From Flavobacteriaceae bacterium (GTDB lineage: Bacteria > Bacteroidota > Bacteroidia > Flavobacteriales > Flavobacteriaceae), in the NCBI GenBank assembly GCA_965224465.1, contig OZ245049.1, forward strand, positions 3,090,001 through 3,122,000: a DNA stretch of 32,000 nucleotides, given 5' to 3'. The notes beneath the pieces were generated by a model. It was not told the DNA's origin and did no database searches. It saw nothing but the letters and a program-made list of their open reading frames with translations. Below are positions 161 through 21,309 of the stretch, piece by piece; position 1 is the stretch's first letter, and the number at the start of each line of letters is the position of its first letter. A program made the position numbers and the translations under genes.

Positions 161-161
161 A

Positions 162-1090: not shown

Positions 1091-1100
1091 TATTTACACT

Positions 1101-1769: not shown

Positions 1770-1992
1770 CCGAGTATCTTTCTCGTACTCACAACAAAAA
1801 CAAGACTATGCTCCCCCGCTGGCGCAAGCAGAACAAATAGCCTGGTAAAGGCTAGTGCGAGTGTCACGCTCGTACCGTTAAGAGTAAGAAAAGAAATGAT
1901 ACGCTTAAATAATTCAGAAGAGAGAACAGGAAAATAAAATAGAGGGTTTAGTTTGTTTAACGGCACAAGCAAGATGTTTGTGCGAGCGAGGC

Positions 1993-3358: not shown

Positions 3359-3369
3359 GTAGAATTATA

Positions 3370-4917: not shown

Positions 4918-5714
4918 AAAACAAATATTTAATAATATTTTTTTTGATTACATTAATAATTTCTTGTAAAGAAATAGAGAACCCAAAAATAACAACAAAT
5001 ATAAATAAGATAAAAGATACAATTAGAATCAACTGTAAAGAATGTATTATTGATCTTAAGTTTAATAATAAAAAGTTAAATAAATTAAAAGAAAAATATT
5101 CTAATGATGATTTTTATATTATAGCTGATGATGCAAACAATTATACATCTAATGTAAGAGACTTCTTAGGTCAAGAGAAAAAAGAAATTATTAAAATAAA
5201 AATGAATTCTAATAATGTTTTAAAAATTAATAATAGATTTATTATTCCCTATGAAAAAATTAATTATTGGGATTATATTTTATGTTTAAATAGTACAAAA
5301 CCAAAAATTGTCAGCCCAATTGAATTTATAGATGTTTATCAGACGTACTATATTGACAAAATCAAATCAATTAAACCTAATTGGATAGGGAGTTTTAATT
5401 TTTTTAATGACTTAGGCAAAATTGGAGATTCTGGAATTTTTATTGGATATAATATTAATATTTCAAAAGATAGTATTTTGTTTTCTGGGCAAGGTTATCA
5501 AACTAATTTTTATGATTTGTGTTACGCCAAGCAAAATAAAGATACCTTAGAATTATATTACAAAAAAACAATTGAAGGAACAGATTATAATAAAAAAGAG
5601 AAAAAAGCATTATTTAAACTATATATTAAAAACAGCAATTATTATGGTAAAAGTCCTGTAATATTTATTGAATCTATTAATAACACTCCTTTTCAATTAG
5701 AAAAAAATGATTAA
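4914..5714 (+). CDS. Lipoprotein, putative immunity protein of orphan toxin 3
   Basis: ATG at 4914 gives MKNKYLIIFFLITLIISCKE (lipobox ISC). There is an ATGA start/stop overlap with the toxin ORF. Confidence 0.6.
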   Translation: MKNKYLIIFFLITLIISCKEIENPKITTNINKIKDTIRINCKECIIDLKFNNKKLNKLKEKYSNDDFYIIADDANNYTSNVRDFLGQEKKEIIKIKMNSNNVLKINNRFIIPYEKINYWDYILCLNSTKPKIVSPIEFIDVYQTYYIDKIKSIKPNWIGSFNFFNDLGKIGDSGIFIGYNINISKDSILFSGQGYQTNFYDLCYAKQNKDTLELYYKKTIEGTDYNKKEKKALFKLYIKNSNYYGKSPVIFIESINNTPFQLEKND

Positions 5715-5717
5715 TTA

Positions 5718-7291
5718 ACTCAAGTTTCGCACTTAGATAGATTTACGCAACCTCTTGATAGTTAAGCTTGTGGATATTCACTAGGAATCCAAAATCTTCA
5801 ATATTCGCTATTATTTTACGTGTAACCATTTCAACATCAATAGATTCAATCATCTTTTCCAAAATGTCAATCACCAAGCTGATAACTGCTAATATCCTGA
5901 TGTTTAGCTTATTCTCTATATAATCTTGTTTTAAATCTTTAAACAAGCCTCCTATAGTTTCGTAGGCTTCCATTCTATATCGAATACTGGTGAGTAAATA
6001 TTGAACCATTATAATGCTTATTTGTGCGATTTGAATATCGAAATTAGTAGACTGACATTTTCCAAGACCAAACAACTGCTTAGCTTCTTTAAAAAACACT
6101 TCTATGGACCATCTGATACTGTATATTTCAATAGCCTTTACAAATTTCAGTGTTGTATCCGTTGATATTAACGTGTGCCATTTGCCATTCTTTCCACGTT
6201 TTGAAATAAATACAGCAACCTTAAGACCATCAATTTCAGTTATGTAATGATGGTAGTAATAATTGAATTTACGGCATCGTTTTGGTTTTATTTTCTGTTT
6301 TTTGAGTTGTGACAACGTTTTTATCTTTGATCGAACTTCAATCTTACTGTTGTATTTATACATCCCAATAATATGAGTTGAACTACTAATGTTCCGTAGC
6401 TTTCTAAGTAATTTAACACTTGTAAACCAGGTGTCTATTAAGATGTAATCTATGGGGATTTTACGTTTTACAAGCCTTGAGAACATTTGAACTAGCAGGT
6501 CTGTTTTCTTTTTATTGAGTTCCTGATACCTCTTTGCTGCAATTGTTTTACTACATCTTGGAGTTTTCTTTTGAAGCCTACGTTGCTTCGCCGTTAGACC
6601 GTATTTTAATTTTGATGTTTTACTTTCACGATGCAAACTAAAGTCAACAGGGATAAATACACTTCCATTCCAATAACCAGCTACAAGTAGCTTAAAGCCT
6701 AGGTAATACGTTTTTGACACATGGTTGTATATTTTTGAAACACCTTCAATTGTCTTTCCTGTTTTAGAAAGATCAGTATCGTCAAAGATCAAGCACTTTG
6801 TAGCGTCTTGAGATGGAGTAAAGAACTCTTCTTTTAATAGATATTGCTTCACAAACTGAGCTAGAAAAACCCTCCAATTTATCTTTTGATTTGCTAGGAT
6901 TCGATAGTATGAATCTTTACCCGACTGACCTAATCCCTTGTCTTTACTACTTGTAAGTCCATGAATAGAATCAAATCCGATAATAGGTAAAATTAAAAGT
7001 GTAGAGATTAAATTACCGAATGAAATCCCCGATTTCTTACACCAACTAAACTTGTTTTTAATTTTATTGAATCCTAAAATATTTAGATGTGCTTGTAGGT
7101 ATTCTGAACTAAGCCAAATCTTATTAAATTTTCCTTTTATCTCCTGTGTTTTTGTGATATCTTCGTGTTCTAGCATGTTTTGTACTTTCTTGTTCGTACT
7201 TAAAAGTACAATAAAACCAGGGGATTACCTTGGTTTTCATGCTATTTATTTTTACTTAAACACCTGTAAATGATGGGTGCGAAACTTGAGT
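5718..7291 (-). mobile_element. Complete IS4-family insertion sequence (1574 bp)
   Basis: Perfect 15-bp terminal inverted repeats: ACTCAAGTTTCGCAC at 5718-5732 and its reverse complement GTGCGAAACTTGAGT at 7277-7291. They enclose a single DDE transposase ORF. No flanking direct repeat is seen. Confidence 0.85.
5743..7176 (-). CDS. IS4-family DDE transposase (477 aa)
   Basis: Long ORF with the IS4-type C-terminal Y-x2-R-x3-E-x6-K block (YSIRWSIEVFFKEAKQ). It is bracketed by the IRs. Confidence 0.9.
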   Translation of the reverse strand: MLEHEDITKTQEIKGKFNKIWLSSEYLQAHLNILGFNKIKNKFSWCKKSGISFGNLISTLLILPIIGFDSIHGLTSSKDKGLGQSGKDSYYRILANQKINWRVFLAQFVKQYLLKEEFFTPSQDATKCLIFDDTDLSKTGKTIEGVSKIYNHVSKTYYLGFKLLVAGYWNGSVFIPVDFSLHRESKTSKLKYGLTAKQRRLQKKTPRCSKTIAAKRYQELNKKKTDLLVQMFSRLVKRKIPIDYILIDTWFTSVKLLRKLRNISSSTHIIGMYKYNSKIEVRSKIKTLSQLKKQKIKPKRCRKFNYYYHHYITEIDGLKVAVFISKRGKNGKWHTLISTDTTLKFVKAIEIYSIRWSIEVFFKEAKQLFGLGKCQSTNFDIQIAQISIIMVQYLLTSIRYRMEAYETIGGLFKDLKQDYIENKLNIRILAVISLVIDILEKMIESIDVEMVTRKIIANIEDFGFLVNIHKLNYQEVA

Positions 7292-7555
7292 AAACTTATA
7301 TCATTGAAGGATTCTCTTGAAGATATACTTTCAAGCCATTCACTTAATATTGATGATGAAATTATTTCAACTATTAGTTCATTGTGCATTGAAATTAGAT
7401 TGATGATTAACGAGTTTCGATTTAATTCTACTCATGAAGAATTAACTGGAGAAAAAGAAGGGATTTCTGGAGCTAATCGGCTAGATAAAATTTATGATAT
7501 GATTATGGATTTACTAAGATTACTTGAGCATGAAAATGGTATTAAAAGAGAATAA
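7277..7555 (+). CDS. Hypothetical 92-codon ORF, possibly the 3' remnant of a gene cut by the IS4 insertion
   Basis: The GTG 'start' lies inside the IS4 inverted repeat and the first in-frame ATG is well downstream. An identical copy is at 17355-17633. No domain recognised. Confidence 0.3.
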   Translation: MRNLSKLISLKDSLEDILSSHSLNIDDEIISTISSLCIEIRLMINEFRFNSTHEELTGEKEGISGANRLDKIYDMIMDLLRLLEHENGIKRE

Positions 7556-7703
7556 AGCAAAGCTGCTAACAATAAATATAGGTCATTTGGCAGGTAATGC
7601 AAATTTTGAAAATGAGTACAATTAATATAATATATAGCGTTTGGATAGGTTGGAGCTTTGAAATGCCAAACGCCCCATATTCAAGCCGTTGGCAAACATT
7701 AAA

Positions 7704-8324
7704 ATGAAGACTGTACTATACATATTAATTACTCTAATTTCGACTGTCTCGTATGGCCAAATCAGTGGAAAAGATAGCGACAGAGCGCATCTGCTAATTG
7801 ATAATTTTCGAAACCATATTGATTCGACTAACCAGTTGACTAATGGAGCTAAGATTTTCTATATCAGCGACTCCTTATTTAAAGGAACGATATTGACTTT
7901 GAAAAATGGCGACAAACTTGAACTTGACTTGAGATACAAAGACAATTTTCGTGGCTATACAGAATTAGGTGTTGACTTTGAGAATTATGTACTTATAAAG
8001 AATCGTGGAGACGGGTCAGGAAACCCTGAACGACTCCGGGTAATCAACAAAAAAACAGGTGAAGACAAGTGGCTTGGAAACTATCCATTCTATCTTGACA
8101 AGGAAAATGAAATCGGTGTTTACAAATCATATACAGATTCGTTCTCACAAATTATAGTTCATGACTTCTCGACCAACAAAACAGAAATTTATCCGACTCC
8201 TGCCACTAAATGTATCTGCTGTGGTTGTTATGAAATTGTCCAATTCGACAATGATGGTTTCACAATAAAATTTGTTGACCCCGATGACAATGAGACAGAA
8301 CTGAAAATGAAAAGAAAAAAATAA
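7704..8324 (+). CDS. Secreted hypothetical protein (206 aa) with a C-terminal CICCGC cysteine cluster
   Basis: ATG at 7704 gives MKTVLYILITLISTVSYGQ (signal peptide). An identical copy is at 19639-20259, upstream of the second PAAR gene. Confidence 0.6.
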   Translation: MKTVLYILITLISTVSYGQISGKDSDRAHLLIDNFRNHIDSTNQLTNGAKIFYISDSLFKGTILTLKNGDKLELDLRYKDNFRGYTELGVDFENYVLIKNRGDGSGNPERLRVINKKTGEDKWLGNYPFYLDKENEIGVYKSYTDSFSQIIVHDFSTNKTEIYPTPATKCICCGCYEIVQFDNDGFTIKFVDPDDNETELKMKRKK

Positions 8325-8486
8325 CGAAATGCCAATAACTAAGTGTTCGTGCGATACCTAGCGCCCAGCATGAACATCCTGTTGACTGTATCGTTTCAAA
8401 AGATGATACTATGAGGTTGGCGCAATTAATTAAGAGGCTATCAACAAAGACCTTAATAAGATACTACCTGTTTTAGTGCATTTACT

Positions 8487-8516
8487 CCCACGCTCTTTTG
8501 TGGGGATAGTTTTTTA
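8487..8516 (+). terminator. Weak candidate intrinsic terminator
   Basis: CCCAC (8487-8491) / GTGGG (8500-8504) stem followed by GATAGTTTTTT. The stem is only 5 bp and lies ~165 nt after the upstream stop. Confidence 0.3.
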
Positions 8517-8726
8517 CTGTTTTTTGATACTGATTATTGTTGGTTAGTAGCGTTTAGGCATGCGCTTTCTATTACGTGGCTACGTTTATTTTTTAACAAC
8601 GCTAGAACGTAAAACAACCTATTTATATCGGTTATAAGATAAAGGTCAAATCGGTACGGTAATTAGATGAATAAAAATACAGGGAAATATAATCGGAAAA
8701 CCACTACTGCATATAACTATTTTTTG

Positions 8727-8734
8727 TACATTTG
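8727..8734 (+). promoter_or_regulatory. Candidate Bacteroidota -7 promoter element (TAnnTTTG) upstream of the PAAR gene
   Basis: TACATTTG at 8727-8734. The paralogous position 20662-20669 reads TACTTTTG, so the consensus is kept although neighbouring bases differ. No clear -33 TTTG partner. Confidence 0.25.
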
Positions 8735-8900
8735 AAGACTGCTTATACATATATACGTCTGAATAATTAAAATAACCCAATGCTACATCGTAGGTTAAAT
8801 GGATATGCCATCTTGTTTAGCACTGCTACTGTGAGAATATGGGATTATAAGTAATTTAACGCACTCAAGCGGTAGAACATTACATAAAAAACAAAAAATT

Positions 8901-9362
8901 ATGCCAGGACCAGCAGCAACAATATCACACATGCACACATGCCCTATGTATAGTGGAACAAGCCCACATACTGGTGGCCCCATTATAGGCCCGGGAGTGC
9001 CAACAGTTTTAATAGGAGGAAAACCTGCCGCAGTAATGGGGGATCAATGTACCTGTTCGGGACCACCCGATGTAATTGTAGAAGGTGTTTCTACCGTATT
9101 AATTGGCGGGAGACCTGCAGCTACTATGGGATCAAAAACAGGTCATGGAGGCGAAGTAAGCATTGGAAATCCTACCGTACTTATTGGTACAAGATGTAGT
9201 GCTCCTACCGCAATAATGCCAGTGCATAAAATACCTTTTCCTAAAATCACTCTAATTAATAGAATATTAGGGAATACAAGGCAAGCGCAAGAAAACCAAG
9301 AAAAAATAAAAGAAGAAGCTAAGAAACATGGATATCTTAGTGATTTTAATTTAAGTATCTAA
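8901..9362 (+). CDS. PAAR-domain protein with a ~55-aa C-terminal tail
   Basis: Gly/Pro-rich beta-repeat with literal PAA motifs (GGKPAAVMGD, GGRPAATMGS), conserved H/C residues (HMHTCPM, CTCSG) and repeated TVLIGG strands. GC is markedly higher than in the flanks. Confidence 0.9.
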   Translation: MPGPAATISHMHTCPMYSGTSPHTGGPIIGPGVPTVLIGGKPAAVMGDQCTCSGPPDVIVEGVSTVLIGGRPAATMGSKTGHGGEVSIGNPTVLIGTRCSAPTAIMPVHKIPFPKITLINRILGNTRQAQENQEKIKEEAKKHGYLSDFNLSI

Positions 9363-9373
9363 AATAAAAATCT

Positions 9374-12300
9374 ATGAGAGTAAGTTATCCGCTAAAAGAT
9401 ATTAGTACTGATGCCGAAGCAAAAAATTATTTGGGGAATCGTAACCTTTTTGGAAAATACCCTATTGGAGCGCATAATGCTTGGCATGGTGGTATACATT
9501 TAGAAGGTGCAAGTAGAGAAATACAATGCATTGCGCAAGGTCGTATAATTGCCTACCGCTTTGCAGAAGGGTATAAAAAAACGATAATAAACAATTCGGA
9601 TCACTTATACTCTAATGGGTTTATACTCATACAACACGATTATAAAAGTAAAGAAAAACAAAAAATGACCTTTTATAGTTTGTATCATCATTTAATGCCT
9701 AAAGATGAGATAACTACTAATAAGTTTAGTTTACCTGATTTTGTAAGTAAAAAAAAACATGTAGTAACTAGAGGTTTAGGAATTCTTAATCTAGGTTTAA
9801 GAGGGAGGAAGCTTAAAGATAATGTAATAAACTGGAAAGATAAAGATACTATAGTTGTTGTAATACCTAAAGGAGAGCTTGTACAAGCTATGCTAGACGA
9901 AAATAGCAAGGAAATAAGAAAAGGAAACTGGTTAAAAGTAAGCTATACAGATAAAAACAATAAAAAATATGAAAATATTTACTTAAGTACAAAATATGGT
10001 ACAAAATATAAAGTAAAGCAAATAGGTACTACCACTACTTACGAAATAATCACTACCGAAGATCCAGATAATAGTATATTAGGTGCAATAGTAAGAACAG
10101 AAGCAATTAATAGTTCTGAAATTGTAAAAGTCATTGAGAACGGTTTCCCTATAAAAATAGATGACTCTTATAAAAACAAAGGTTGGATAAAATTAGCAGA
10201 CAATACTGGCTATATTTTAGAAAGCAGTTTAGATAAAAAAAAAGTACTTGCTAAAAACGTTAAGTTAAATACAATTACAGCTTGTGATATACCAATAAAA
10301 GCAGGTGTAACCATTGGTTATACAGGTAGCCTAGGTTTTAAAGGGTACAAAGGATATAAAGCAACCCACTTAGAAGTATTTACAACAGATGATGTTTTTG
10401 AGTTTTTAAGTAATGAAAAAAAAGATGGAAAAGAAGAACAATATTTTACAAATATTATAGCAGGCACAACATTAAAAACAAGCCTATTTTACAAAGTAGA
10501 TATTAAAGCAAATACCCCTATAAAAGTACTTAAAATTGAAGGAGATTATGCACAAATAAAAGTAACATCTATTACTGCAACCTTAGTTAGAGATACCGAT
10601 ATTAATGATAACGTAAAACCATTTAATAGCAATAAACTTTATACTATCAAAAATCTTACTACGGTTAATAAAGCATTTAATGGTCTTGCAACTAAAGATG
10701 CCACATTCAATACAAAACAAGTAAAAGCACCAAGAAATTGGAGAACAAATTTAAACAGAACTGTTACCTTTTACCCAAATGGCTATGGTAAAGTGTTTTG
10801 GATAGAAAAAACATTTATTTCCAAAATAACAGAAAAAACCAAAAAAAAAGCAGGTATATTTGTCTCAATTACTCCTGACTATTTTTTAACAGAAGAACAA
10901 AAATACGATACAGTTGAAAGAGAAGCCAAAACAGGAGAAAAAACTACATTATATGTAGATGTATGTAAGGCATATATCGAAGTCCCTTTTAGAACCGATG
11001 TAGAAGAAGTAACTGTAGAAAAAGAAAAAGTAGTTGACTTACGTAAATTTAAAAAAGCAAAAGACGATAAAAAAGACCTTTGGTATAAAGTAGTATTAGA
11101 TGATACAACTAGTAGCCAATGTGTCGCAGTAAAAGGCTGGGTAAAAGAAAAGGATCTTGACAAATTTAGCGCTTACGATTGGCAAAAATTTGGTTTTAAA
11201 GATCTAGACGCAGGTAATGAATACATATACTCTGTAAAAGACTTATGTAAGGCAGAAGACAGTGCCGCTTTTGTAACCGAAATTTGGGATAAAACAATAG
11301 ATACAGATGGCAATAAAGTATTAGATATACTAGAGCTTATTAGAGCGTTTAGTAAACCAGAAATAGCACAAAAACTATCTCGTTTGGTATGTAAGCACAA
11401 AAATGAATGGTCTTATACTATGGACGAAATAAAACCAGAAGTAAAAGAACTCTATGATTTTGGTATACAATTAGAAGAAGTTACAGCCGAAAAACAAAAA
11501 CTAGAAACCGAAAGGGATGATAGTTTAGCCAAAATGGAAACCAAAATAGAAAATTTAATGTGGTGGGATGAGGCAAGTAAAAAAACCTACACAGCACCCA
11601 TAAAAGAAGAAGATAAAACAAAAACGAGTAGCACCAAAAGACCTTCTATGTTGCCAGAAGGTACAGTGGTAGAAGAAATACCACAAAAAGATGTTGTACC
11701 TTTAGACAATAAAACAACAGCAGTTAAACCAGATGCTAAACCAACGAAAGATAGTATACCAACGACAAGTACAACCGCTGCTCCAGCACCAGAAACTAAA
11801 GTAGAAGAAAAAGAAGTGCCACCAAAACGTATGTTTCCAAGTACCAATATAGTACATCACTTTCATCCAATTGCTTGGGTGGAGCAGATGAGGAGGGTTT
11901 TTGGAGATAATGGTATTTGTGTTTGTGAAGCTAGAGTTAGGGCTTTTCTGAGACTTATTAAAGAATTTGAAGGAGTTCCAGGCGAAAAAGGATATACTAC
12001 ATTGTTTAATCATAAAAGTTTTTCAGATATGTCTACACATCCAGAAAAACCTATTCTTTGGTATAAAAACAAAAAAACAGGAAAAAATGTGTATAGTACT
12101 GCTGCAGGTGCATATCAAATAATGAAAGAAACTTGGTGGGATTATAATGGAGATGTAGTAAAAGACCATAAAAAAGTAGGTAGAAACGAGAATAGAAACT
12201 TCGTTAAAAAATATGGAATAAAGGATTTTTCAGCTAAATCTCAAGATAAATTTTGTATAGCATTACTAATACATGGATATAAAGCAAAAAATCAATTGAA

Positions 12301-12982
12301 TTATTTATTAAATGGTTTTGTAACCAGAGCGATAGAAGAATGTGCATCACACACTTGGGCTAGTTTTACTCCTGGTAGATATCCAAAACAAGGGCCAACA
12401 AAGGGACTTACAAATAAGAAAAAAATAAAAGACGCTATACATAACGCTAGAGTAAAGCAATGGGAAGCCTATGATAAATTTCTTACTGAAGAGCTAGCTG
12501 GACAATCTGATTTACATTTAGAACCTGGATTTTTAAAAAAGTTTGGAATTAAAGAGCCTGAACCAAAGGAGCTAATAGAAAACAAAAAAGAAGGGCTTGA
12601 TTTAAATAAAGCAATTGAAAGATTAAATAAAAGAGCTGGTGACATGACTACTTCAGTATGGAAATGTGCTAAATATGTTAGATGGGCTTTAGAAGCTGGG
12701 GGAATGAAAACATGGGGTGCTGCTAAAATAGATCAACGCCCAAATTCGGCAAAAGATTATGGCCCGTTTTTATTAAACAAAGGTTTTAAAGAAGTTCCTA
12801 AGGGTAATTATCAAAAAGGAGATATATCAGTTATTCAAAATTTAAGTGCGGCAAAACCTCATGGGCACATAGCTATGTGGAATGGTGAAAATTGGGTATC
12901 AGATTTTGTTCAAAAAACTCTTTACCCAGGAGATGGGTATAGAAATGCACAACCAAATTATAAAATTTACAGATGGGAATAA
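9374..12982 (+). CDS. Large polymorphic effector: split M23/LytM-like N-domain, SH3-like inserts, P/T/K linker, HHFHPIAWVEQM junction, GH104 (lambda R-like) muramidase, Tae4/NlpC-P60-like amidase
   Basis: Starts 11 nt after the PAAR stop. M23-like blocks: WHGGIHLEG, GRIIAYRF, GFILIQH, FYSLYHHL, then ~190 aa later IKAGVTIGYTGSLG...ATHLEVF. The C-terminal region is colinear with phage lambda R: RVRAFLRLIKEFEG / FSDMSTHPEK / STAAGAYQIM..TWWDY / KDFSAKSQD / HTWASF. The last ~135 aa carry KCAKYVRWAL (Cys) ... KGDISVI ... HGHIAMWNGENWVSDF (His), as in Tae4-type amidases. Confidence 0.85.
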   Translation: MRVSYPLKDISTDAEAKNYLGNRNLFGKYPIGAHNAWHGGIHLEGASREIQCIAQGRIIAYRFAEGYKKTIINNSDHLYSNGFILIQHDYKSKEKQKMTFYSLYHHLMPKDEITTNKFSLPDFVSKKKHVVTRGLGILNLGLRGRKLKDNVINWKDKDTIVVVIPKGELVQAMLDENSKEIRKGNWLKVSYTDKNNKKYENIYLSTKYGTKYKVKQIGTTTTYEIITTEDPDNSILGAIVRTEAINSSEIVKVIENGFPIKIDDSYKNKGWIKLADNTGYILESSLDKKKVLAKNVKLNTITACDIPIKAGVTIGYTGSLGFKGYKGYKATHLEVFTTDDVFEFLSNEKKDGKEEQYFTNIIAGTTLKTSLFYKVDIKANTPIKVLKIEGDYAQIKVTSITATLVRDTDINDNVKPFNSNKLYTIKNLTTVNKAFNGLATKDATFNTKQVKAPRNWRTNLNRTVTFYPNGYGKVFWIEKTFISKITEKTKKKAGIFVSITPDYFLTEEQKYDTVEREAKTGEKTTLYVDVCKAYIEVPFRTDVEEVTVEKEKVVDLRKFKKAKDDKKDLWYKVVLDDTTSSQCVAVKGWVKEKDLDKFSAYDWQKFGFKDLDAGNEYIYSVKDLCKAEDSAAFVTEIWDKTIDTDGNKVLDILELIRAFSKPEIAQKLSRLVCKHKNEWSYTMDEIKPEVKELYDFGIQLEEVTAEKQKLETERDDSLAKMETKIENLMWWDEASKKTYTAPIKEEDKTKTSSTKRPSMLPEGTVVEEIPQKDVVPLDNKTTAVKPDAKPTKDSIPTTSTTAAPAPETKVEEKEVPPKRMFPSTNIVHHFHPIAWVEQMRRVFGDNGICVCEARVRAFLRLIKEFEGVPGEKGYTTLFNHKSFSDMSTHPEKPILWYKNKKTGKNVYSTAAGAYQIMKETWWDYNGDVVKDHKKVGRNENRNFVKKYGIKDFSAKSQDKFCIALLIHGYKAKNQLNYLLNGFVTRAIEECASHTWASFTPGRYPKQGPTKGLTNKKKIKDAIHNARVKQWEAYDKFLTEELAGQSDLHLEPGFLKKFGIKEPEPKELIENKKEGLDLNKAIERLNKRAGDMTTSVWKCAKYVRWALEAGGMKTWGAAKIDQRPNSAKDYGPFLLNKGFKEVPKGNYQKGDISVIQNLSAAKPHGHIAMWNGENWVSDFVQKTLYPGDGYRNAQPNYKIYRWE
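11575..11891 (+). repeat. 317-bp homology tract shared with 3399-3715
   Basis: See the partner feature at 3399-3715. Confidence 0.9.
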
Positions 12983-13842
12983 ATAAAATATTTAAACTTT
13001 TAGTTGTATTTGCTTTTTTTAGTTCTTTCTTATCATGCAAAGAAAGTCCTAAAAAAAACAATGATGTTGTAGTAAATAATACATCGTCATCACTTAATGT
13101 AGGAAAAAAGAATAATCCCCAAACAAAAATAGAGTCTAAAGATTTTATTCTTGAATTTTACACAAAATATATTAAATATTTAGAAGATCCTTTAAATGAA
13201 GAATCAATAGATTATGAATTTTATTTAACGGAAGATTTGATTGATGAAATTGGAAAAACAGAAGGTTATGATTACATTATAAAAGCCCAAGATTCAACTG
13301 TAGAATGGTTGAAATCTTTAAAAGTAGAGGATACTGAGAAAAATAACGTTTACAGTATTACTCGTGAAAAAGGTTATTATGATAGTGATGATAATACAAT
13401 TTATGCCACTGTTATAGAACTAAAAAATGAAAAATTAAAAATATCAAAGTTAAGTAGTACTTTAATAGATCAACCTATTTCTACTCCAGTAGAAAACGAA
13501 GATCAGAAAGGTAAGTTTACTTATTACTCTTTTGATTATAAAATAAATCCTGGAGATCGCATTAATGAGACAAGTTATATTATAGAATATTTAGAAGAAG
13601 AACATATTGTTTTTTCAATGATGGGATATGATGGAGAGTTTGACTATAAATGTAGACAGGTAAGGACAAAAGAAGGTGTTTCACTTTATTATATAGAAGC
13701 TACTGATGATGATGAATATACAGGAAATAAAAGTAAACCACTCGCTAGAATATATAAAAAAGGTGAAGATTTTTATGCTAAAAGTTCACTTATAGAAGAT
13801 GGTAAAGAAATTAAGCTAAAAGAAGTTGAAAGTAGATACTAA
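12973..13842 (+). CDS. Lipoprotein, putative immunity protein for the full-length effector
   Basis: MGINKIFKLLVVFAFFSSFLSCKES (lipobox LSC). It overlaps the effector stop by 10 nt, and its position is analogous to the three orphan-linked lipoproteins. Confidence 0.65.
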   Translation: MGINKIFKLLVVFAFFSSFLSCKESPKKNNDVVVNNTSSSLNVGKKNNPQTKIESKDFILEFYTKYIKYLEDPLNEESIDYEFYLTEDLIDEIGKTEGYDYIIKAQDSTVEWLKSLKVEDTEKNNVYSITREKGYYDSDDNTIYATVIELKNEKLKISKLSSTLIDQPISTPVENEDQKGKFTYYSFDYKINPGDRINETSYIIEYLEEEHIVFSMMGYDGEFDYKCRQVRTKEGVSLYYIEATDDDEYTGNKSKPLARIYKKGEDFYAKSSLIEDGKEIKLKEVESRY

Positions 13843-13963: not shown

Positions 13964-14272
13964 ATGAGAAAAAACGAAGAAAAACGAGCCTATATGACAG
14001 CTGTTGTTTCCGATTGGAAGTTGAGTGATTTAACCTTGGAAGATTATTGTAAAAGTCATAAAATTACACTTTGTAAATTTAGGTACTGGAATAAGAAATT
14101 GACCTCCAAAAAAGCCAGTGGATTTTCAAAGGTTGAACTTATTGATGCTCCTATTGAAAACAGCAGAAATTCTATTTTAGATAGTTTTAAAATCGAGTAT
14201 CCAACAGGTGTAAATTTGGTCATTAACAAAGAGATTACACTTGTCGATTTACAAAATTTAATTCATTTGTAA
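13964..14272 (+). CDS. tnpA: IS66 accessory protein TnpA (Orf1)
   Basis: Small first ORF of the IS66 triplet, 102 aa, directly upstream of the tnpB-like ORF. Confidence 0.75.
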   Translation: MRKNEEKRAYMTAVVSDWKLSDLTLEDYCKSHKITLCKFRYWNKKLTSKKASGFSKVELIDAPIENSRNSILDSFKIEYPTGVNLVINKEITLVDLQNLIHL

Positions 14273-14273
14273 T

Positions 14274-14615
14274 ATGCTAAATCTTTCAAGTGAACTTGAT
14301 TTTCATCTGTACCTAGAACCCACAGATATGCGTAAAGGATTTAATGGTTTGTCAGGTGTTATCCGTAATAATTTAGAAGAGGATCCTAGTAATGGAGCTG
14401 TTTTTATCTTCATAAATAAACCTCGAAACAAAATAAAACTATTGCATTGGCAAGCAGGTGGATTTGTACTGTATTATAAACGATTGGAACGAGGTACTTT
14501 TGAACTCCCGGTGTATGATAATCTGAAAGGAAGTATACAAATGAAATACAGCCAAATGGTGATGCTTCTTGATGGACTGTCTATCAAAAACATCCAACAA
14601 AGGAAACGTTATTAA
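14274..14615 (+). CDS. tnpB: IS66 Orf2 protein TnpB
   Basis: DMRKGFNGLSGVI...GAVFIFINKPRNKIKLLHWQAGGFVLYYKRLERGTFELP matches the conserved IS66 Orf2 pattern. Confidence 0.9.
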   Translation: MLNLSSELDFHLYLEPTDMRKGFNGLSGVIRNNLEEDPSNGAVFIFINKPRNKIKLLHWQAGGFVLYYKRLERGTFELPVYDNLKGSIQMKYSQMVMLLDGLSIKNIQQRKRY

Positions 14616-14683
14616 TGTCTTTTTACAGGTAAAAAACCTAATAAAACCAGGCTGTTCATGTATATTTTTCGTATATTTAATGT

Positions 14684-16327
14684 ATGGAAAAAGACTTAGA
14701 ACAGCTATCAAAAAAAGCACTTATAGCCCTATTACAGGAGGCTAATTCTAAGTCAGATTTACTTATCAAAAAGACAAGTTCTCTTAGTGCAAAAAATGAG
14801 TTACTTACTATAAAGACAAAAGACGTTACTTTACAAAAGGCTATCCTAGAAGCTCAATATAAAGAATTAGAGACAAAATACGGATATGGACAATTTCAAT
14901 TAGAGCAATTACGTCGTATGATTTTTGGGACAAAACGTGAGCGTTTTATAATGGCTAATAACCCTTTTCAAATGCAACTCCCTTTCGAAGTTTTAAAAGA
15001 GATGCCCCAGGAAGAAGAAGCTCCTGTAAACATTACATATCAACGTAAAAAGACTAAAAAAAGAACGATTGGAAGTTTAAATCTCCCCAGTCATTTACCT
15101 GTTGAAATTATTAATTTAGAGCCTAAAGAGACTATAGAGAACCGAATAAAAATAGGTGAAGAAATTACAGATAAATTAGAACTTGTACCCACAAAGCTAT
15201 ACATAAAACGATATGTCAGACCAAAATACGCCTTAAAAAAGAAAGTACAAGACACATTGATTGACAATGGAAACCCTTTAGGTATTAAGACCGTTATTAT
15301 GGCTGATTTACCAAGTTTTGCTATTGAAAAATCTGTAGCATCAAACAGCCTGCTAGCACAGCTATTGATTGATAAATTCTTAGATCACTTACCGTATTAT
15401 CGACAGATAGAACGTTTTAAACGAGAAGGAATCTCTATAAGTTCATCTACAATAAATGGATGGCAAAACAGCTTAGGACACTTACTTAAGCCGCTGTATC
15501 AGGCTATGAAAAACACGGTGCTGTCACAAGGATATGTACAGGCCGATGAATCAACTATTCCGGTGCTAGACAAACAGAAAAAAGGAAAAACTCATACTGG
15601 ATATCATTGGGTGTACTATTCACCCATACAAAAAATGGTATTGTTTGATTATCGTCACTCTAGATCTAAACATGGACCTAGAGAAATGCTTAAAAACTTT
15701 AAAGGGTATTTACAAACAGATGGCTACGCTGTATATGATGAATTTGCACTTAAAAAAGATGTCACTTTAGTAGGGTGTATGGCACATGCACGTCGTTATT
15801 TTGAGAAAGCACTAGACTATGACAAAGTAAAAGCGAGTCATGCGATGGTACTCATTCAACAATTATATGCCATTGAACGACATTGTAAAAACCAGGAATT
15901 TACTCCTGAGCAACGGCATGCTTATCGCCTAGATAAAGCACAACCAATAATGGATACATTTATAAAATGGTTGATCCATAATACCCAAGGAAGCTTACCT
16001 AAAAGTTCCTTAGGAAAAGCAATCACTTATACATTAAAACGATGGGACTACTTAAAAGCCTACCTGTATGACGGTACTTTAGAACTAGATAATAACCTGG
16101 TAGAAGGATCTATCAGAACATTAGCTATTGGACGTAAAAATTATTTATTTGCAGGTAGCCATGATGCTGCAAAAAATGCTGCCATGTTCTACTCCTTTTT
16201 TGGGACTTGTAAAAAACACCAAGTAAACCCCTATAAATGGATGAAAAAAGTACTGGATATAATCCCTGATTACAATGCTCGAAAGCTAAATGAGCTATTT
16301 CCACAAAATTTAAACCTCGATCAATAA
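14684..16327 (+). CDS. tnpC: IS66-family transposase TnpC
   Basis: 547 aa with an N-terminal coiled coil, DHLPYYRQIERFKREGI, and a DDE-type core (HWVYYSP..., LQTDGYAVYD, GCMAHARRYF). Confidence 0.9.
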   Translation: MEKDLEQLSKKALIALLQEANSKSDLLIKKTSSLSAKNELLTIKTKDVTLQKAILEAQYKELETKYGYGQFQLEQLRRMIFGTKRERFIMANNPFQMQLPFEVLKEMPQEEEAPVNITYQRKKTKKRTIGSLNLPSHLPVEIINLEPKETIENRIKIGEEITDKLELVPTKLYIKRYVRPKYALKKKVQDTLIDNGNPLGIKTVIMADLPSFAIEKSVASNSLLAQLLIDKFLDHLPYYRQIERFKREGISISSSTINGWQNSLGHLLKPLYQAMKNTVLSQGYVQADESTIPVLDKQKKGKTHTGYHWVYYSPIQKMVLFDYRHSRSKHGPREMLKNFKGYLQTDGYAVYDEFALKKDVTLVGCMAHARRYFEKALDYDKVKASHAMVLIQQLYAIERHCKNQEFTPEQRHAYRLDKAQPIMDTFIKWLIHNTQGSLPKSSLGKAITYTLKRWDYLKAYLYDGTLELDNNLVEGSIRTLAIGRKNYLFAGSHDAAKNAAMFYSFFGTCKKHQVNPYKWMKKVLDIIPDYNARKLNELFPQNLNLDQ

Positions 16328-16345: not shown

Positions 16346-16383
16346 TATTTTTAATTCCTATACGTACTTCGTCGGACGGATAC

Positions 16384-17254
16384 GTTGTGACAACGTTTTT
16401 ATCTTTGATCGAACTTCAATCTTACTGTTGTATTTATACATCCCAATAATATGAGTTGAACTACTAATGTTCCGTAGCTTTCTAAGTAATTTAACACTTG
16501 TAAACCAGGTGTCTATTAAGATGTAATCTATGGGGATTTTACGTTTTACAAGCCTTGAGAACATTTGAACTAGCAGGTCTGTTTTCTTTTTATTGAGTTC
16601 CTGATACCTCTTTGCTGCAATTGTTTTACTACATCTTGGAGTTTTCTTTTGAAGCCTACGTTGCTTCGCCGTTAGACCGTATTTTAATTTTGATGTTTTA
16701 CTTTCACGATGCAAACTAAAGTCAACAGGGATAAATACACTTCCATTCCAATAACCAGCTACAAGTAGCTTAAAGCCTAGGTAATACGTTTTTGACACAT
16801 GGTTGTATATTTTTGAAACACCTTCAATTGTCTTTCCTGTTTTAGAAAGATCAGTATCGTCAAAGATCAAGCACTTTGTAGCGTCTTGAGATGGAGTAAA
16901 GAACTCTTCTTTTAATAGATATTGCTTCACAAACTGAGCTAGAAAAACCCTCCAATTTATCTTTTGATTTGCTAGGATTCGATAGTATGAATCTTTACCC
17001 GACTGACCTAATCCCTTGTCTTTACTACTTGTAAGTCCATGAATAGAATCAAATCCGATAATAGGTAAAATTAAAAGTGTAGAGATTAAATTACCGAATG
17101 AAATCCCCGATTTCTTACACCAACTAAACTTGTTTTTAATTTTATTGAATCCTAAAATATTTAGATGTGCTTGTAGGTATTCTGAACTAAGCCAAATCTT
17201 ATTAAATTTTCCTTTTATCTCCTGTGTTTTTGTGATATCTTCGTGTTCTAGCAT
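16384..17254 (-). pseudogene. IS4-family transposase lacking its C-terminal ~190 codons
   Basis: The translation is identical to the first ~290 aa of the 477-aa copy. The track ORF then reads through into IS66 terminal sequence (..LSQRIRPTKYV). Confidence 0.85.
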
Positions 17255-17369
17255 GTTTTGTACTTTCTTGTTCGTACTTAAAAGTACAATAAAACCAGGG
17301 GATTACCTTGGTTTTCATGCTATTTATTTTTACTTAAACACCTGTAAATGATGGGTGCGAAACTTGAGT
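16384..17369 (-). mobile_element. Truncated second IS4-family copy (transposase-start-proximal 986 bp only)
   Basis: Identical by eye to 6306-7291 (offset 10078). It starts abruptly at the IS66 right end and retains the IR at 17355-17369. Confidence 0.85.
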
Positions 17370-17633
17370 AAACTTATATCATTGAAGGATTCTCTTGAAG
17401 ATATACTTTCAAGCCATTCACTTAATATTGATGATGAAATTATTTCAACTATTAGTTCATTGTGCATTGAAATTAGATTGATGATTAACGAGTTTCGATT
17501 TAATTCTACTCATGAAGAATTAACTGGAGAAAAAGAAGGGATTTCTGGAGCTAATCGGCTAGATAAAATTTATGATATGATTATGGATTTACTAAGATTA
17601 CTTGAGCATGAAAATGGTATTAAAAGAGAATAA
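17355..17633 (+). CDS. Duplicate of the hypothetical 92-codon ORF
   Basis: The translation is identical to 7277-7555. Confidence 0.3.
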   Translation: MRNLSKLISLKDSLEDILSSHSLNIDDEIISTISSLCIEIRLMINEFRFNSTHEELTGEKEGISGANRLDKIYDMIMDLLRLLEHENGIKRE

Positions 17634-17646
17634 AGCAAAGCTGCTA

Positions 17647-19503
17647 ATCGAGTAGACGGGTGACAACTGAATAGTTGCCACTGCGCCTCTCACACCACCG
17701 TACGTACGGGTCTCGTATACGGCGGTTCAAAAAATTGAAGTCTGCGTATTATTAATGTAATCTATCAAAGGTTTATACCCTTTTCGTACAAGTCTAGATT
17801 TGGTAATGGTAGTCTTTAAAATTGGACTTTGGGCTACTGCCCATCCTCCCATTCTGGTTCTACTCCAAGCGTATGCTTGTCCATTCTCTATTCCTAATCT
17901 GATTAGGTTTTTACGTTTTCGTTCGAGTTTTTTTCCAATCGTGCCAAATACAATATCGCAACCGATTTCTTATCCACTCATCTAGCTTTTTAACTTTTGC
18001 ATAGATGTTGGTTAAACGGTAATTATTCATCCAGCCTCGGCAGACTTGATTAAGCCGTTCTAAACGTTCCGACAATGACATTGGTTTGGTTTTCTTGGTA
18101 ATACTCTTTAGGTTACGCTTAAACTTTGCCCAACTTTTCTTTGCTACTACTAGTATATATTGTCCTTTTACTCCCTTTTTGTAGACTGGCACAAAGCCAT
18201 GTCCTAGTAACTCAAAGTTTACGGGTCTACGAATGCCACTTTTGGCTTTATTTATAGGTAGTTTTAATTTGTCTTTTAAGAAGACAAACAACGTATTCCC
18301 TATTTGTTTCGCCTCACGTTTGGTCTTTGCGTAAATGCTAAAATCATCTGCGTAGCGGACGTACCGTAAACCCATTCTTTTCATTTCTTTATCCAAGACG
18401 TCTAACATTATGTTAGATAGTAAGGGACTAATTGGGCTTCCTTGCGGGATTCCTTTTCTACGCTTTTGAAGTTTCCCATTTATTAAAATAGGAACTCTAA
18501 GCCATTTTCGGATTAAACGCATGGTTGTTGGACATTTTACCCTGTGGTAAATAAGTTGTAGTAGGATACAATGGTCCACTTCATCAAAGAACCCTTTAAG
18601 GTCAATATCTACAATATCTTGGTAACCATTATTGATATACTGTTGAGCTTGTAGTACTGCTTTTTGAATGTTCTTTTGTGGTCTAAACCCAAAACTAAGT
18701 GGCTCAAAATCAAATTCGAACTGAACCATTAATTGTTGGCTTACCGCTTGCTGTAGCCATCTATCTACTACTGTTGGGATTCCTAAAAGTCTGGTTTTAC
18801 CCTTGCCTTTTGGAATGCTTACTCCTAAGATTGAGTTTGGAACATAGCTATTCTTACGGATCGTTGTTAGTATGTCTGAACGGTTTTCAACTATATAAGT
18901 TGAAAGTTCCGTTACTTTCATACCATCAACTCCGCTAGCTCCTTTATTTCGCTTCACTTGACGTGCTGCTTTAAAAAGGTTGGTAGCTTCTAGTACTTTG
19001 TCAATCATAGGTTAAATAATTCGGGTACTCCTGTTGGTTTAAAACTAGGCTAGCTAGGCATCCTAATTGAATTTCAACGTAATTTAATGTTCTGTCCTTC
19101 CCTATTTGTGAGACCATCTGAGGTCTTTCCTCAACTCGTTTCCCATAGGTACTATGACGTCTGCTGACTTCTCCATAGAACCAACTCCTGGCTTTGGAGA
19201 CCTCCCCAGGTAATGACATCTTCTTTCACTCAATCACTGCCGTATCTACATAACTACCCTTTTAGTATTCTTTTGGGCGTTGCAATGATGTGTTTACTTA
19301 CCCAAGTAATTATACCTCTGTATACGGTTTCTGTTCGTCAGTACCGAGCTTTGTAGTCTCGCTTCCTTCAGATAAAACCTCACGGTTTTCACCCTTGCGA
19401 CTTACTAATGTTTCAGAACGTTACTCCTGCACATAAGGGACTTGCACCCTCTAGATTAATTAACTACCTTTCCGTAGTTAAAAGATGCCCATGCTGGGCA
19501 CAC
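17647..19503 (-). mobile_element. Group II intron (1857 nt) with intron-encoded reverse transcriptase
   Basis: It is absent from the otherwise identical copy at 7568/7569-7570, which fixes the boundaries. On the minus strand it begins GTGTGCCCAGCATGGG (GUGYG) and ends ...CTACTCGAT (AY). A domain V-like helix CCGCCGTATACGAGACCCGTACGTACGGTGG lies near the 3' end. The RT ORF is inside. Confidence 0.85.
17911..19008 (-). CDS. Group II intron-encoded reverse transcriptase/maturase (reading frame broken near the C-terminus)
   Basis: RT blocks include GIPQGSPISPLLSNIML and the YADDFSIY active-site motif. The maturase X-like motif is RGWMNNY. After the stop at 17911-17913, the typical C-terminus (KRKNLIRLGIENGQAYAWSRTRMGGW...) continues in another frame down to 17727. 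Confidence 0.85.
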   Translation of the reverse strand: MIDKVLEATNLFKAARQVKRNKGASGVDGMKVTELSTYIVENRSDILTTIRKNSYVPNSILGVSIPKGKGKTRLLGIPTVVDRWLQQAVSQQLMVQFEFDFEPLSFGFRPQKNIQKAVLQAQQYINNGYQDIVDIDLKGFFDEVDHCILLQLIYHRVKCPTTMRLIRKWLRVPILINGKLQKRRKGIPQGSPISPLLSNIMLDVLDKEMKRMGLRYVRYADDFSIYAKTKREAKQIGNTLFVFLKDKLKLPINKAKSGIRRPVNFELLGHGFVPVYKKGVKGQYILVVAKKSWAKFKRNLKSITKKTKPMSLSERLERLNQVCRGWMNNYRLTNIYAKVKKLDEWIRNRLRYCIWHDWKKTRTKT

Positions 19504-19638
19504 ACAATAAATATAGGTCATTTGGCAGGTAATGCAAATTTTGAAAATGAGTACAATTAATATAATATATAGCGTTTGGATAGGTTGGAGCTTTGAAATG
19601 CCAAACGCCCCATATTCAAGCCGTTGGCAAACATTAAA

Positions 19639-21298: not shown

Positions 21299-21309
21299 TT
21301 ATAAATGTT

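Follow-up and report, generated by a model that had tools for sequence, protein, structure and literature searches.

A PAAR-effector-immunity locus in a Flavobacteriaceae genome as a probable T6SS-iii ammunition module with a candidate effector-loading tail on PAAR

The window, by which we mean the whole 32-kb stretch of DNA analysed here, carries on its forward strand a PAAR gene (8901-9362, 153 aa), a large effector gene (9374-12982, 1202 aa) and a third gene (12973-13842, 289 aa) whose product is probably a lipoprotein. The PAAR and effector genes are 11 nt apart (9363-9373) and the effector and lipoprotein genes overlap by 10 nt (12973-12982), in exact agreement with the gene order, gap and overlap given in a preliminary description of this DNA. 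The same description had noted that the window was devoid of apparatus genes, and tblastn searches with VgrG and TssD probes returned no match in the 32 kb; adaptors of the DUF4123, DUF1795 and DUF2169 types were likewise absent from every Pfam scan of the window ORFs. The remaining ORFs belong to transposases, a group II intron, a cupredoxin, a TonB receptor, a rhodanese, a GltS-like protein and DinB, the whole region being a mosaic of IS elements (IS4-like, IS66 and IS30-like) and the group II intron.

The 153-aa product is a PAAR spike-tip protein made up of a core and a C-terminal extension. Residues 19-86 matched PF05488 at E=4.7e-21, with 75.2 bits against a cut-off of 27 and hence above the Pfam gathering threshold, and the NCBIfam profile T6SS_PAAR_dom was matched in part (34.8 bits against 124). 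The extension forms a tail (aa 97-153; 9189-9359, forward strand) that ends in ...NQEKIKEEAKKHGYLSDFNLSI and is the proposed dock of the effector. The PAAR gene is part of a duplicated segment (6306-9385, forward strand), together with part of an IS4-like transposase gene and the ORFs p92 and p211, of which a second copy lies at 16384-21322; self-blastn gave identities of 100% and 98.2% for the copies. Inside the second copy sits the group II intron (approximately 17648-19503; Rfam RF02001, 126 bits; RVT_1 and GIIM). PAAR copy 2 (20837-21298, forward strand) shares 95% amino acid identity with copy 1 and has a different tail, ending in ...KKNGYLSLVDFSI; behind it lies a second effector of another subtype (21310-22008, forward strand; 37% identity to the first effector), reduced to its N-terminal 232 aa by an IS30-like element on the minus strand (21997-23001). 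PAAR copy 2, the IS mosaic and the orphan cassettes discussed below had not figured in the preliminary description of the locus. The source genome also holds two truncated paralogs, P0003 and P0005.

The first 745 residues of the effector (9374-11608, forward strand) constitute a conserved, TseP-N-like region, delineated by the family alignment, an AF2 model of the effector (pLDDT 79.8) and an SH3_3 match in Pfam (E=5.7e-6). In this region a WHGGIH...QH...YSLYHH...HLE core is interrupted by SH3b-like beta domains and followed by an EF-hand-like loop and a helical region; conservation extends over approximately 830 aa in all, up to the HFHPIAFVEQMK junction. Residues H38, H42, H88 and H332 are invariant in the family alignment and H106 and E334 nearly so, a set that, as read from the sequence, is compatible with a Zn-dependent amidase. 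Foldseek found no match of the region to M23 or to solved structures, and PF01551 (Peptidase M23) was not matched by the window effector even at E<=10. Sub-threshold M23 matches were obtained for the relatives L002 (E=3.4e-4) and L063 (E=6.7e-4) and for the second effector copy of the window (E=0.05), and a profile search against the PDB gave lysostaphin at E=0.26 and EnvC at E=1.3. As the profile stays below threshold and the motifs read HxxxH/HxE instead of HxxxD/HxH, we do not assign the effector to Peptidase M23; its N-region would be at most a remote, split M23 derivative.

The conserved region is joined to the C-terminal domains through a Pro/Thr/Lys-rich linker (11609-11827, forward strand), which is predicted to be disordered (pLDDT <50 over aa 745-814) and is 97.5% identical in nucleotide sequence to 3399-3715 in one of the orphan cassettes (cassette 3 below). 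The linker leads into the junction motif RMFPSTNIVHHFHPIAWVEQMRRVF (11828-11899, forward strand), which was modelled by AF2 as folded (pLDDT approximately 95) and marks where the conserved region gives way to the variable toxins: it is kept family-wide, similarity stops just beyond it, and the window holds four repeats of it. Two enzyme-like domains follow on the forward strand. The first, a lambda-lysozyme-like domain (aa 871-1003; 11984-12382), was found by phmmer against PDB entries 1am7/3d3d at E=2.4e-5; the alignment to 1am7 begins at chain residue 30, leaving the catalytic N-terminal region with its catalytic Glu uncovered, and Pfam gave no match. The second (aa 1079-1201; 12608-12976) belongs by sequence to the Tae4 family of peptidoglycan amidases (phmmer against 4hz9/4hzb, E=1.5e-23), the alignment to 4hz9_A retaining ...CAKYVR... 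and ...PHGHIA..., whose Cys and His we take to be the Tae4 catalytic residues. The 289-aa product, which starts MGINKIFKLLVVFAFFSSFLSC... with a signal peptide followed by a Cys, is a probable lipoprotein and the cognate immunity protein: its homologues always trail the same lysozyme-Tae4 toxin (L041, L029 and L037), and it showed no similarity to PDB entries or to Tai4.

Upstream of the PAAR gene, at 440-5714 on the forward strand, lie three orphan toxin/immunity cassettes, in each of which the toxin begins at the junction motif. Cassette 1 comprises a CHAP toxin (467-1090) and a lipoprotein (1041-1769), cassette 2 a toxin (1978-2691) and a lipoprotein (2660-3358), and cassette 3 an SLT-like toxin (3370-4917) and a DUF5991 lipoprotein (4890-5714). 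The view, put forward earlier, that periplasm-facing immunity proteins fit cell-wall targets is borne out by the CHAP and SLT-like orphan domains together with the Tae4 and lambda-lysozyme matches. In L001, L010, L046 and L040 the orphan toxins of the window recur at the C-terminal end of full-length effectors, and toxin and immunity gene travel together between genera, with both orphan and full-length versions in existence; in all, 10 orphan cassettes were found in eight loci. With a constant N-region, hypervariable toxins after the junction, a downstream immunity gene and orphan cassettes, the effector belongs, judged from its sequence, to a polymorphic toxin family, one that is probably akin to TseP, and the earlier treatment of the large ORF as an isolated multidomain effector does not hold. 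Rhs and CdiA proteins have the junction motifs PxxxxDPxGL or VENN. The window resembles these systems in that a short junction precedes variable toxins, each with its immunity gene, and orphan arrays keep the junction for recombination. Unlike in Rhs/CdiA, however, the orphan array lies upstream of the main gene with an IS element between, the junction is HFHPIAFVEQMK, and Pfam and NCBIfam scans detected neither YD or FHA repeats nor Rhs, PT-VENN or HINT domains, so that the effector is not assigned to that class.

A search of 1.84 billion representatives placed 389 clusters in the effector family at E<=1e-30. A PAAR gene lies no more than 60 nt upstream in 42 of 43 family effectors, and VgrG stands directly ahead of PAAR in 20 of 37 loci. 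In at least six genomes (L016, L025, L026, L029, L033 and L034) the module closes a core T6SS-iii cluster, for which TssN, TssO and TssD (PF17642) served as the T6SS-iii-specific markers. In L034 and L026, VgrG-PAAR-effector is immediately preceded by TssN (E=1e-67), TssO (E=5e-20), TssD (E=1e-51), TssE and TssF, as it is by the same components in L016, L025, L029 and L033; the family is genetically linked both to T6SS-iii core genes and to VgrG/PAAR. Distant relatives are found behind T6SS-i VgrGs with the same C-terminal ending, alongside PpkA/PppA. Modules of PAAR, effector and immunity gene without VgrG, amid housekeeping genes, are common in relatives, for example in Tamlana and Aquimarina longa. 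The window's own chromosome (5,241,564 bp) encodes at least five full-length VgrGs or VgrG clusters elsewhere; no TssF from it was among the best 120 of 215 matches, below which a TssF of the L026 type would rank. The preliminary statement that the window does not reveal the machine or the way it is loaded holds for the window alone, but the relatives provide both an assignment to T6SS-iii and a hypothesis for loading.

TseP of Aeromonas dhakensis stands for a family of chimeric T6SS effectors that combine amidase and lysozyme; its N-domain, TseP-N, is a Zn-amidase that binds VgrG2 (PMC11893102), and a tail of approximately 30 aa on VgrG2 dictates TseP delivery (PMC8668125). One family member, P0015 (E=3e-68 to the window effector), is UniRef A0A2I7SIG5, which stands at rank 214 in the published Foldseek list of TseP-N structural homologues with 15% identity (PMC11893102). 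The window N-region may thus be placed in the TseP-N fold family indirectly, through the listing of P0015 and the shared H-x3-H...H...H pattern and EF-hand-like loop; TseP's own residue numbering appeared in none of the matches listed. Both systems have a large cargo effector right behind a spike carrier, an N-region in which the H-x3-H...H...H pattern is combined with an EF-hand and SH3b-like domains, a peptidoglycan glycosidase at the C-terminus (in the window a putative one) and one downstream immunity gene. In both, moreover, the carrier bodies are near-identical within a genome and a divergent C-terminal tail sets, or here would set, specificity. The effector lies directly behind a carrier with a divergent, effector-specific tail here too, but that carrier is PAAR and not VgrG: while TseP belongs to T6SS-i and depends on a VgrG tail, the window family is linked to T6SS-iii and has a PAAR tail, or in three cases an elongated Hcp/TssD. 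The window's effector also differs from TseP in bearing two C-terminal enzyme domains (lysozyme-like and Tae4), and the Bacteroidota branch in its explicit HFHPIAFVEQMK junction, its arrays of orphan cassettes and its many different C-terminal toxins, for which we found no description in the literature. With Tae4-Tai4 (PDB 4hz9/4hzb) the effector shares its last 123 residues, which match Tae4, and a (here predicted) periplasmic immunity protein. Tae4 is, however, a small stand-alone effector, whereas in the window the Tae4 domain closes a chain of 1202 aa, and the accompanying immunity protein does not resemble Tai4.

The cognate PAARs share a C-terminal tail of approximately 55 aa with the ending ...GYLxDFxFS(I/L/M). 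The strict motif was C-terminal in 36 of 2032 ORFs, namely 34 cognate PAARs and effector-adjacent TssD, and in no others; in a minimal form the ending was present in 51 of 59 unique carrier tails, whereas among 1220 background ORFs it was seen in 25. Where elongated Hcp/TssD or VgrG precede the effector, they bear the same ending, which is missing from canonical 128-aa TssDs and from the non-adjacent PAAR in L012. A metagenome set repeated the pattern, with two further tailed TssDs and T6SS-i VgrGs ending in ...MKFSG, ...LNFSG or ...YLFSE. In partial Mantel tests the last nine tail residues (tail9) covaried with the effector N-terminus (r=0.66, p=0.0005), in contrast to the PAAR core (r=0.06, p=0.27), although linkage alone must yield part of this covariation as tail and effector are physically adjacent on the DNA. 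PAAR cores that are 97-99% identical bear different tails, each matched to a different effector, and the window's two PAAR copies are identical up to the last approximately 8 codons, after which they diverge together with their effectors.

A separate effector polypeptide dependent on an extended PAAR or PAAR-like protein is known from TseT-PAAR4-TecT of P. aeruginosa and IglF-IglG of Francisella (PMC8651086). These systems use chaperones or an N-terminal extension; at the window there is no chaperone gene, and the proposed dock is located in a tail at the C-terminus whose terminal motif is conserved. WHIX, RIX, MIX and FIX define classes of polymorphic T6SS cargo effectors, of which WHIX has been proposed to cap the C-terminal tail of the spike protein, the binding of VgrG4 being abolished when its last 14 residues are removed (PMC12135965, PMC10435454). 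Like the window family, these classes combine a conserved delivery domain with interchangeable toxins and include two-toxin effectors. In contrast, their domains are proteobacterial, far smaller and unrelated in sequence by Pfam and NCBIfam scans, and no report links any of them to a PAAR tail or to T6SS-iii.

Taken together, we consider it likely that the locus serves a Bacteroidota T6SS-iii as an orphan (auxiliary) ammunition module, loaded through the PAAR tail, directed at the cell wall and diversified by cassettes. In this scheme PAAR would top a VgrG spike encoded elsewhere on the same chromosome, and its tail, chiefly the last approximately 9 residues (GYLSDFNLSI-COOH), would hold the effector N-region non-covalently, as befits an effector that the preliminary description had rightly recognised as a separate polypeptide. 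A tail of this kind, built into PAAR and matched to the effector, would explain the missing adaptor gene, none being needed, and how 'orphan' PAAR-effector modules can sit far from apparatus genes. Firing would deliver the effector to the periplasm of a neighbouring cell, where the lysozyme-like and Tae4 amidase domains would cut peptidoglycan, with the N-region as a possible further Zn-dependent amidase by homology to TseP-N, and the 289-aa lipoprotein would shield the producer and its kin. Recombination with orphan cassettes, for example those at 440-5714, would replace the toxin and immunity gene behind HFHPIAFVEQMK. Recruitment of the effector by a tail on PAAR would then be a new loading variant within a known kind of effector.

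The rules of loading (adaptors, VgrG tails and MIX/FIX/RIX/WHIX domains) come mostly from Proteobacteria, and to our knowledge cargo loading in Bacteroidota T6SS-iii is largely unknown. The locus and its roughly 120 relatives offer a testable rule, that an effector-matched tail on PAAR (sometimes Hcp) recruits a TseP-like effector with no adaptor gene. If true, one ancient effector domain would connect loading in T6SS-i and T6SS-iii, a tailed PAAR followed by a WHGGIH N-region and a HFHPIAFVEQMK junction would mark T6SS-iii effectors in marine Flavobacteriia, and cargo could be engineered by swapping approximately 10 PAAR residues together with the effector, or the toxin behind the junction. 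A bolder extension, on which we are evenly divided, is that a portable C-terminal peptide (hydrophobic-x-F/L-S-x-COOH, preceded in Bacteroidota by ...KKHGYL) serves as a loading code for TseP-N-type effectors of both T6SS-i and T6SS-iii on VgrG, PAAR or Hcp. The Bacteroidota PAAR would then be a two-part adaptor, with a core homogenised in each genome to suit VgrG and a tail exchanged with the effector; a single spike could be re-armed by recombination within the last approximately 10 PAAR codons, and the N-region would be a loading handle as well as a third cell-wall enzyme.

The module could also be genuine T6SS-iii ammunition whose tail is not the dock, the tail instead contacting VgrG, the baseplate or the membrane complex, or its 3' sequence being constrained as the translation-initiation region of the effector, with the effector loaded otherwise, perhaps by binding to the PAAR core or to VgrG itself. 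Adjacency of tail and effector would predict co-inheritance without binding, and the N- and C-domains of TseP both pull down VgrG2, so contacts may exceed a single tail (PMC11893102). We nevertheless judge this unlikely, since the ending is shared by three unrelated carriers only where they directly precede the effector family, is lacking from the canonical TssDs and the L012 PAAR mentioned above, and varies on near-identical PAAR cores to match different effectors, and since a VgrG tail has been shown by experiment to dictate TseP delivery (PMC8668125). Its occurrence on PAAR, TssD and VgrG across genomes of 30% and 55% GC points to selection at the protein level over the nucleotide level.

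Somewhat less probable still is that the locus is a decaying, non-functional remnant, its modules scattered by IS expansion in a genome that may no longer fire them. The crowding of IS4-like, IS66 and IS30-like elements and the group II intron, the truncated second effector and paralogs, and the lack of a TssF of this chromosome among the matches listed would all suit such decay, and with IS elements around the locus and a truncated sister copy present-day function is not guaranteed. Against this, none of the three genes, for PAAR, the 1202-aa effector and the immunity protein, is disrupted and they are tightly coupled, the genome retains at least five full-length VgrGs, and VgrG-less modules among housekeeping genes are commonplace in relatives.

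That PAAR caps an eCIS or phage-tail-like particle and not a T6SS appears very improbable. PAAR proteins are found in eCIS too (PMC8651086), and in L003 an eCIS_core (PF13699) protein and an AAA ATPase are encoded 6-8 kb upstream of a family member. Even there, however, the effector directly follows TssD (PF17642); L003 is the only relative near such genes, and none lies in the window. Members are instead flanked by TssN, TssO, TssE, TssF and TssD, or by a T6SS-i VgrG with PpkA/PppA, no eCIS sheath, tube or baseplate genes lie beside any member, and a viral structure library gave no match, so that we do not class the effector as eCIS cargo. Finally, while peptidoglycan hydrolase and SH3b-like domains are typical of autolysins, it is scarcely credible that the effector gene lies beside PAAR by chance and encodes an autolysin with a housekeeping role or a cell-wall enzyme secreted through T9SS/Sec, as the protein has no N-terminal signal peptide, Por_Secre_tail was not matched in the Pfam scan, the hypervariable C-termini are each followed by a lipoprotein of their own and accompanied by orphan cassettes, and linkage to PAAR is near-absolute (42/43).

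A PAAR gene (8901-9362, 153 aa) is followed, after an 11-nt spacer, by a 1202-aa ORF (9374-12982), which is in turn overlapped by 10 nt by a 289-aa ORF (12973-13842), exactly as the preliminary description had it. The PAAR product is a genuine member of PF05488 (Pfam scan, E=4.7e-21), and a signal peptide followed by a Cys could be read from the sequence at the N-terminus of the 289-aa product. The claim that the rest of the window contains neither a known adaptor nor any structural gene of a T6SS or eCIS also holds, and tblastn with VgrG and TssD probes found neither genes nor remnants of these in the window. The remaining ORFs encode IS4-like, IS66 and IS30-like transposases, a cupredoxin, a TonB-dependent receptor, a rhodanese, a GltS-like protein and DinB, and a group II intron was recognised from RVT_1 and GIIM domains and Rfam RF02001. 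As a locus this is ordinary, an orphan PAAR-effector-immunity module of a T6SS with toxins directed at peptidoglycan. The earlier interpretation is supported in part. Readings of the module in terms of an eCIS, an autolysin or T9SS were weighed and then rejected. The overall explanation of the module is regarded by us as likely.

The C-terminal part of the effector carries two recognisable toxin domains, as residues 1079-1201 match Tae4 (PDB 4hz9/4hzb, E=1.5e-23) with its Cys and His motifs kept, and residues 871-1003 match lambda lysozyme (E=2.4e-5). Apart from a borderline SH3_3 match, the first ~830 aa (the N-region) fall into no Pfam or NCBIfam family. This N-region defines a family, with 23 matches in a word-indexed search, and 389 clusters at E<=1e-30 and 1107 at E<=1e-10 in an exhaustive profile search. 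Conservation in the family alignment runs to the junction motif R.FP....V.HFHPIAFVEQMK, beyond which the C-termini, including CHAP, lysozyme, M23, SLT-like, PG_binding and others, are unrelated, and the effector is therefore a polymorphic toxin. Among relatives whose N-region starts internally there were no fusions to PAAR or VgrG, the extra domains being further peptidoglycan hydrolases only. A comparison of the 289-aa immunity protein with the PDB gave neither Tai4 nor any other meaningful match.

The variable C-termini also occur as free-standing cassettes. An orphan array of three toxin/immunity pairs (about 440-5714) encodes a CHAP toxin, one toxin without an assigned family and an SLT-like toxin of 515 aa, every one of which starts at the repeated motif (Y/H)HFHPIA(F/W)VEQM and has behind it a gene whose product carries a signal peptide and then a Cys. 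These orphan toxins correspond to the C-termini of full-length effectors in other genomes, and conversely Aquimarina algicola, a Cellulophaga and A. hainanensis carry the lysozyme-Tae4 toxin together with the 289-aa lipoprotein as orphan pairs, so that cassette exchange between genomes is directly visible. The 289-aa immunity protein accompanies only the C-terminal cassette. Within the window, a stretch of 317 nt in the third cassette (3399-3715) is 97.5% identical to part of the main effector gene (11575-11891) and stops just past the junction motif. A simple deletion between the repeats would not join these cassettes to the main effector gene, so that exchange would have to proceed by gene conversion or through another paralog. 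The array lies upstream of the main effector, and in relatives such as the Aquimarina muelleri locus L001 it lies downstream. The array is flanked by an IS30-like remnant (18-162), which is 77% identical to 22951-23094, and by an IS4-like element (5743-7176). The immunity lipoproteins encoded at 12973-13842 and 4890-5714, which follow different toxins, have in common a ~90-aa C-terminal DUF5991-like module (BLASTP E=2e-8), with PF19453 matched in the latter by Pfam; related modules are found in immunity proteins of three further loci with effector relatives (L010, L008 and L046).

The secretion machine was approached through the genomic context of relatives, in 46 loci from species-representative genomes and 80 from metagenomes. 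A PAAR gene lies no more than 60 nt upstream of the effector in 42 of the 43 Bacteroidota members with upstream sequence, and VgrG directly precedes the PAAR in 20 of 37. Core clusters that end with the module were seen in Saccharicrinis, Tenacibaculum geojense, an Aquimarina, a Saprospiraceae MAG and, at two loci, Cellulophaga, and these clusters carry the T6SS-iii-specific TssN and TssO, together with TssE, TssF and TssD. From this gene content, assignment of the effector family to the T6SS-iii is strongly indicated. The 5,241,564-bp chromosome of the window also encodes four paralogous effectors, several PAARs and at least five VgrG clusters, and no TssF from it was among the 120 matches listed, of 215, in a TssF search; for this genome itself the T6SS-iii assignment is probable. 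On the Flavobacteriaceae MAG contig L003 (= L007; features at 1-3524 and 9491-13087), an eCIS_core (PF13699) protein and an AAA ATPase are encoded 6-8 kb upstream of a tailed TssD/effector pair, and eCIS-type and T6SS-type genes thus occur on one contig. In A. muelleri L001, the VgrG-PAAR-effector module has GAPS4-type defence genes (PF26110, PF26115; 2445-4489) a few kb upstream of it.

All cognate PAARs possess a ~55-aa C-terminal extension ending in ...NQEK.KEEAKKHG(Y/F)(L/I)..(F/V).(F/L)S(I/L/M/V/F)-COOH. This strict motif was C-terminal in 36 of 2032 ORFs from the genome loci and the window, namely 34 cognate PAARs and one TssD directly before an effector (L003/L007, the same contig), which is 161 aa long against 128 for canonical TssD. 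It was absent from a PAAR not adjoining an effector (L012) and from canonical TssDs, and the metagenome set held two further, different tailed TssDs (L051, L052). Distant relatives (24-40% identity, GC 50-58%) have a canonical T6SS-i VgrG gene upstream, itself preceded by PpkA/PppA-like genes, and these VgrGs end in ...RPMRMMKFSG, ...KRMLNFSG, ...RMVNFSF or ...GAFYLFSE. A minimal ending, hydrophobic-x-[FLIV]-[STN]-x, was found in 51 of 59 unique tails of carriers (the VgrG, PAAR or TssD preceding an effector) as against 25 of 1220 background ORFs.

Covariation was assessed by partial Mantel analysis of 37 PAAR-effector pairs. Identity in the last 9 PAAR residues tracked that of the effector N-terminus (r=0.66, p=0.0005), a correlation to which the closeness of tail codons and effector gene on the DNA contributes; the PAAR core did not track it (r=0.06, p=0.27). 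Four PAARs of Aquimarina longa have cores that are 97-99% identical and tails that are only 22-44% identical, each with a different effector subtype. Strain SW024 of this species holds at least seven loci of the effector family (L020, L022, L023, L032, L038, L042 and L045), and its near-identical cores with differing tails point to within-genome homogenisation of the PAAR body. The second PAAR of the window (20837-21298), which has 95% amino acid identity to the first, allows a natural comparison, as the two genes have the same nucleotides until ~8 codons before the stop and past that point diverge together with spacer and effector. Their products end in ...HGYLSDFNLSI with a short-type effector N-terminus and in ...NGYLSLVDFSI with a long-type one. 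We propose that the PAAR tail, above all its terminal peptide, may serve as a dock for the effector N-region, a step to which, from these sequence patterns, we give slightly better than even chances and which would explain the missing adaptor gene.

Among characterised proteins, TseP of Aeromonas dhakensis is the nearest relative. Its N-domain, which the authors superimposed on PDB 3SLU, acts as a Zn-dependent NAM-L-Ala amidase (H19, H23, H109, H339, H359, E539). TseP has an EF-hand, binds VgrG2, encoded upstream, and plays a structural part in assembly, and the C-domain is a lysozyme (PMC11893102). P0015, a relative with E=3e-68 to the N-region of the window and a PAAR upstream (L002), is UniRef A0A2I7SIG5, which stands at rank 214 in the published list of TseP-N structural homologs (PMC11893102); a Cellulophaga CHAP protein also appears in that list. 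H38-x3-H42, H88 and H332 are invariant in the family alignment and H106 and E334 nearly so, a pattern that fits that of TseP, and no protein with the exact residue numbering of TseP was among the matches listed. In a usable AF2 model of the N-region (pLDDT 79.8), the beta-rich core contains SH3b-like inserts; the model further shows a helical region that includes an EF-hand-like loop, a disordered linker of 70 aa and the junction motif, folded at pLDDT ~95. AF2 models of the whole chain and of the N-terminal 350 aa gave no significant match in the PDB or BFVD, only SH3b subdomains being matched, and the core is therefore not assigned to M23. No significant support for an M23/LytM fold emerged (Pfam sub-threshold, PDB profile search E=0.26-1.3, Foldseek negative), and the N-region is thus called TseP-N-like and not M23.

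In the TseP system, whose VgrGs are otherwise near-identical, a ~30-aa C-terminal VgrG tail dictates the effector delivered (PMC8668125), and a second precedent is provided by WHIX effectors, whose delivery domain is proposed to cap the spike tail (PMC12135965). Tail-dictated loading would be common to TseP and the present family, with the tail on VgrG there and on PAAR or Hcp in Bacteroidota here; the family is probably a TseP-family variant whose putative loading tail has shifted from VgrG onto PAAR or Hcp. In the literature searched, we found no description of a T6SS-iii branch of the effector family, of tail placement on PAAR or Hcp or PAAR-tail loading in Bacteroidota, of a terminal motif common to three carriers, or of the HFHPIAFVEQMK junction with orphan arrays.

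The second PAAR owes its existence to duplication of segment 6306-9385, repeated at 16384-21322 with 98-100% identity (self-comparison). The second module copy (16384-23001) lies in tandem, with a partial IS4-like transposase gene, p92, p211 and PAAR, and is interrupted between p92 and p211 by the group II intron (RT 17911-19008, minus strand; Rfam D1-D4 at 19123-19389). Its effector is of a different subtype, the N-terminus being only 37% identical to that of the main effector, and an IS30-like element (21997-23001) truncates it after 232 aa. The ORFs p92 (92 aa; 7277-7555 and 17355-17633) and p211 (211 aa, with a signal peptide; 7689-8324 and 19624-20259) lie upstream of both PAAR copies, and had neither a Pfam or NCBIfam match nor a homolog in any of 49 genome loci (L001-L049). 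For the secreted p211 an immunity-like role is conceivable, perhaps one directed at the conserved N-region. Upstream of each PAAR, the intergenic region contains a 53-nt element (8579-8629, 20514-20564), of which an inverted copy with 89% identity lies near the rhodanese gene (27142-27194); this may represent a small repeat, a MITE or some regulatory element.

The region around the module is an IS hotspot. A complete IS66 unit (13964-16327; tnpA-like of 102 aa, TnpB_IS66 and DDE_Tnp_IS66) starts 121 nt past the immunity gene and abuts a truncated second IS4-like copy (16358-17254). On the same chromosome, one effector paralog is N-terminally truncated (P0003, 992 aa) and another C-terminally truncated (P0005, 510 aa), which is consistent with ongoing IS-driven decay or shuffling.
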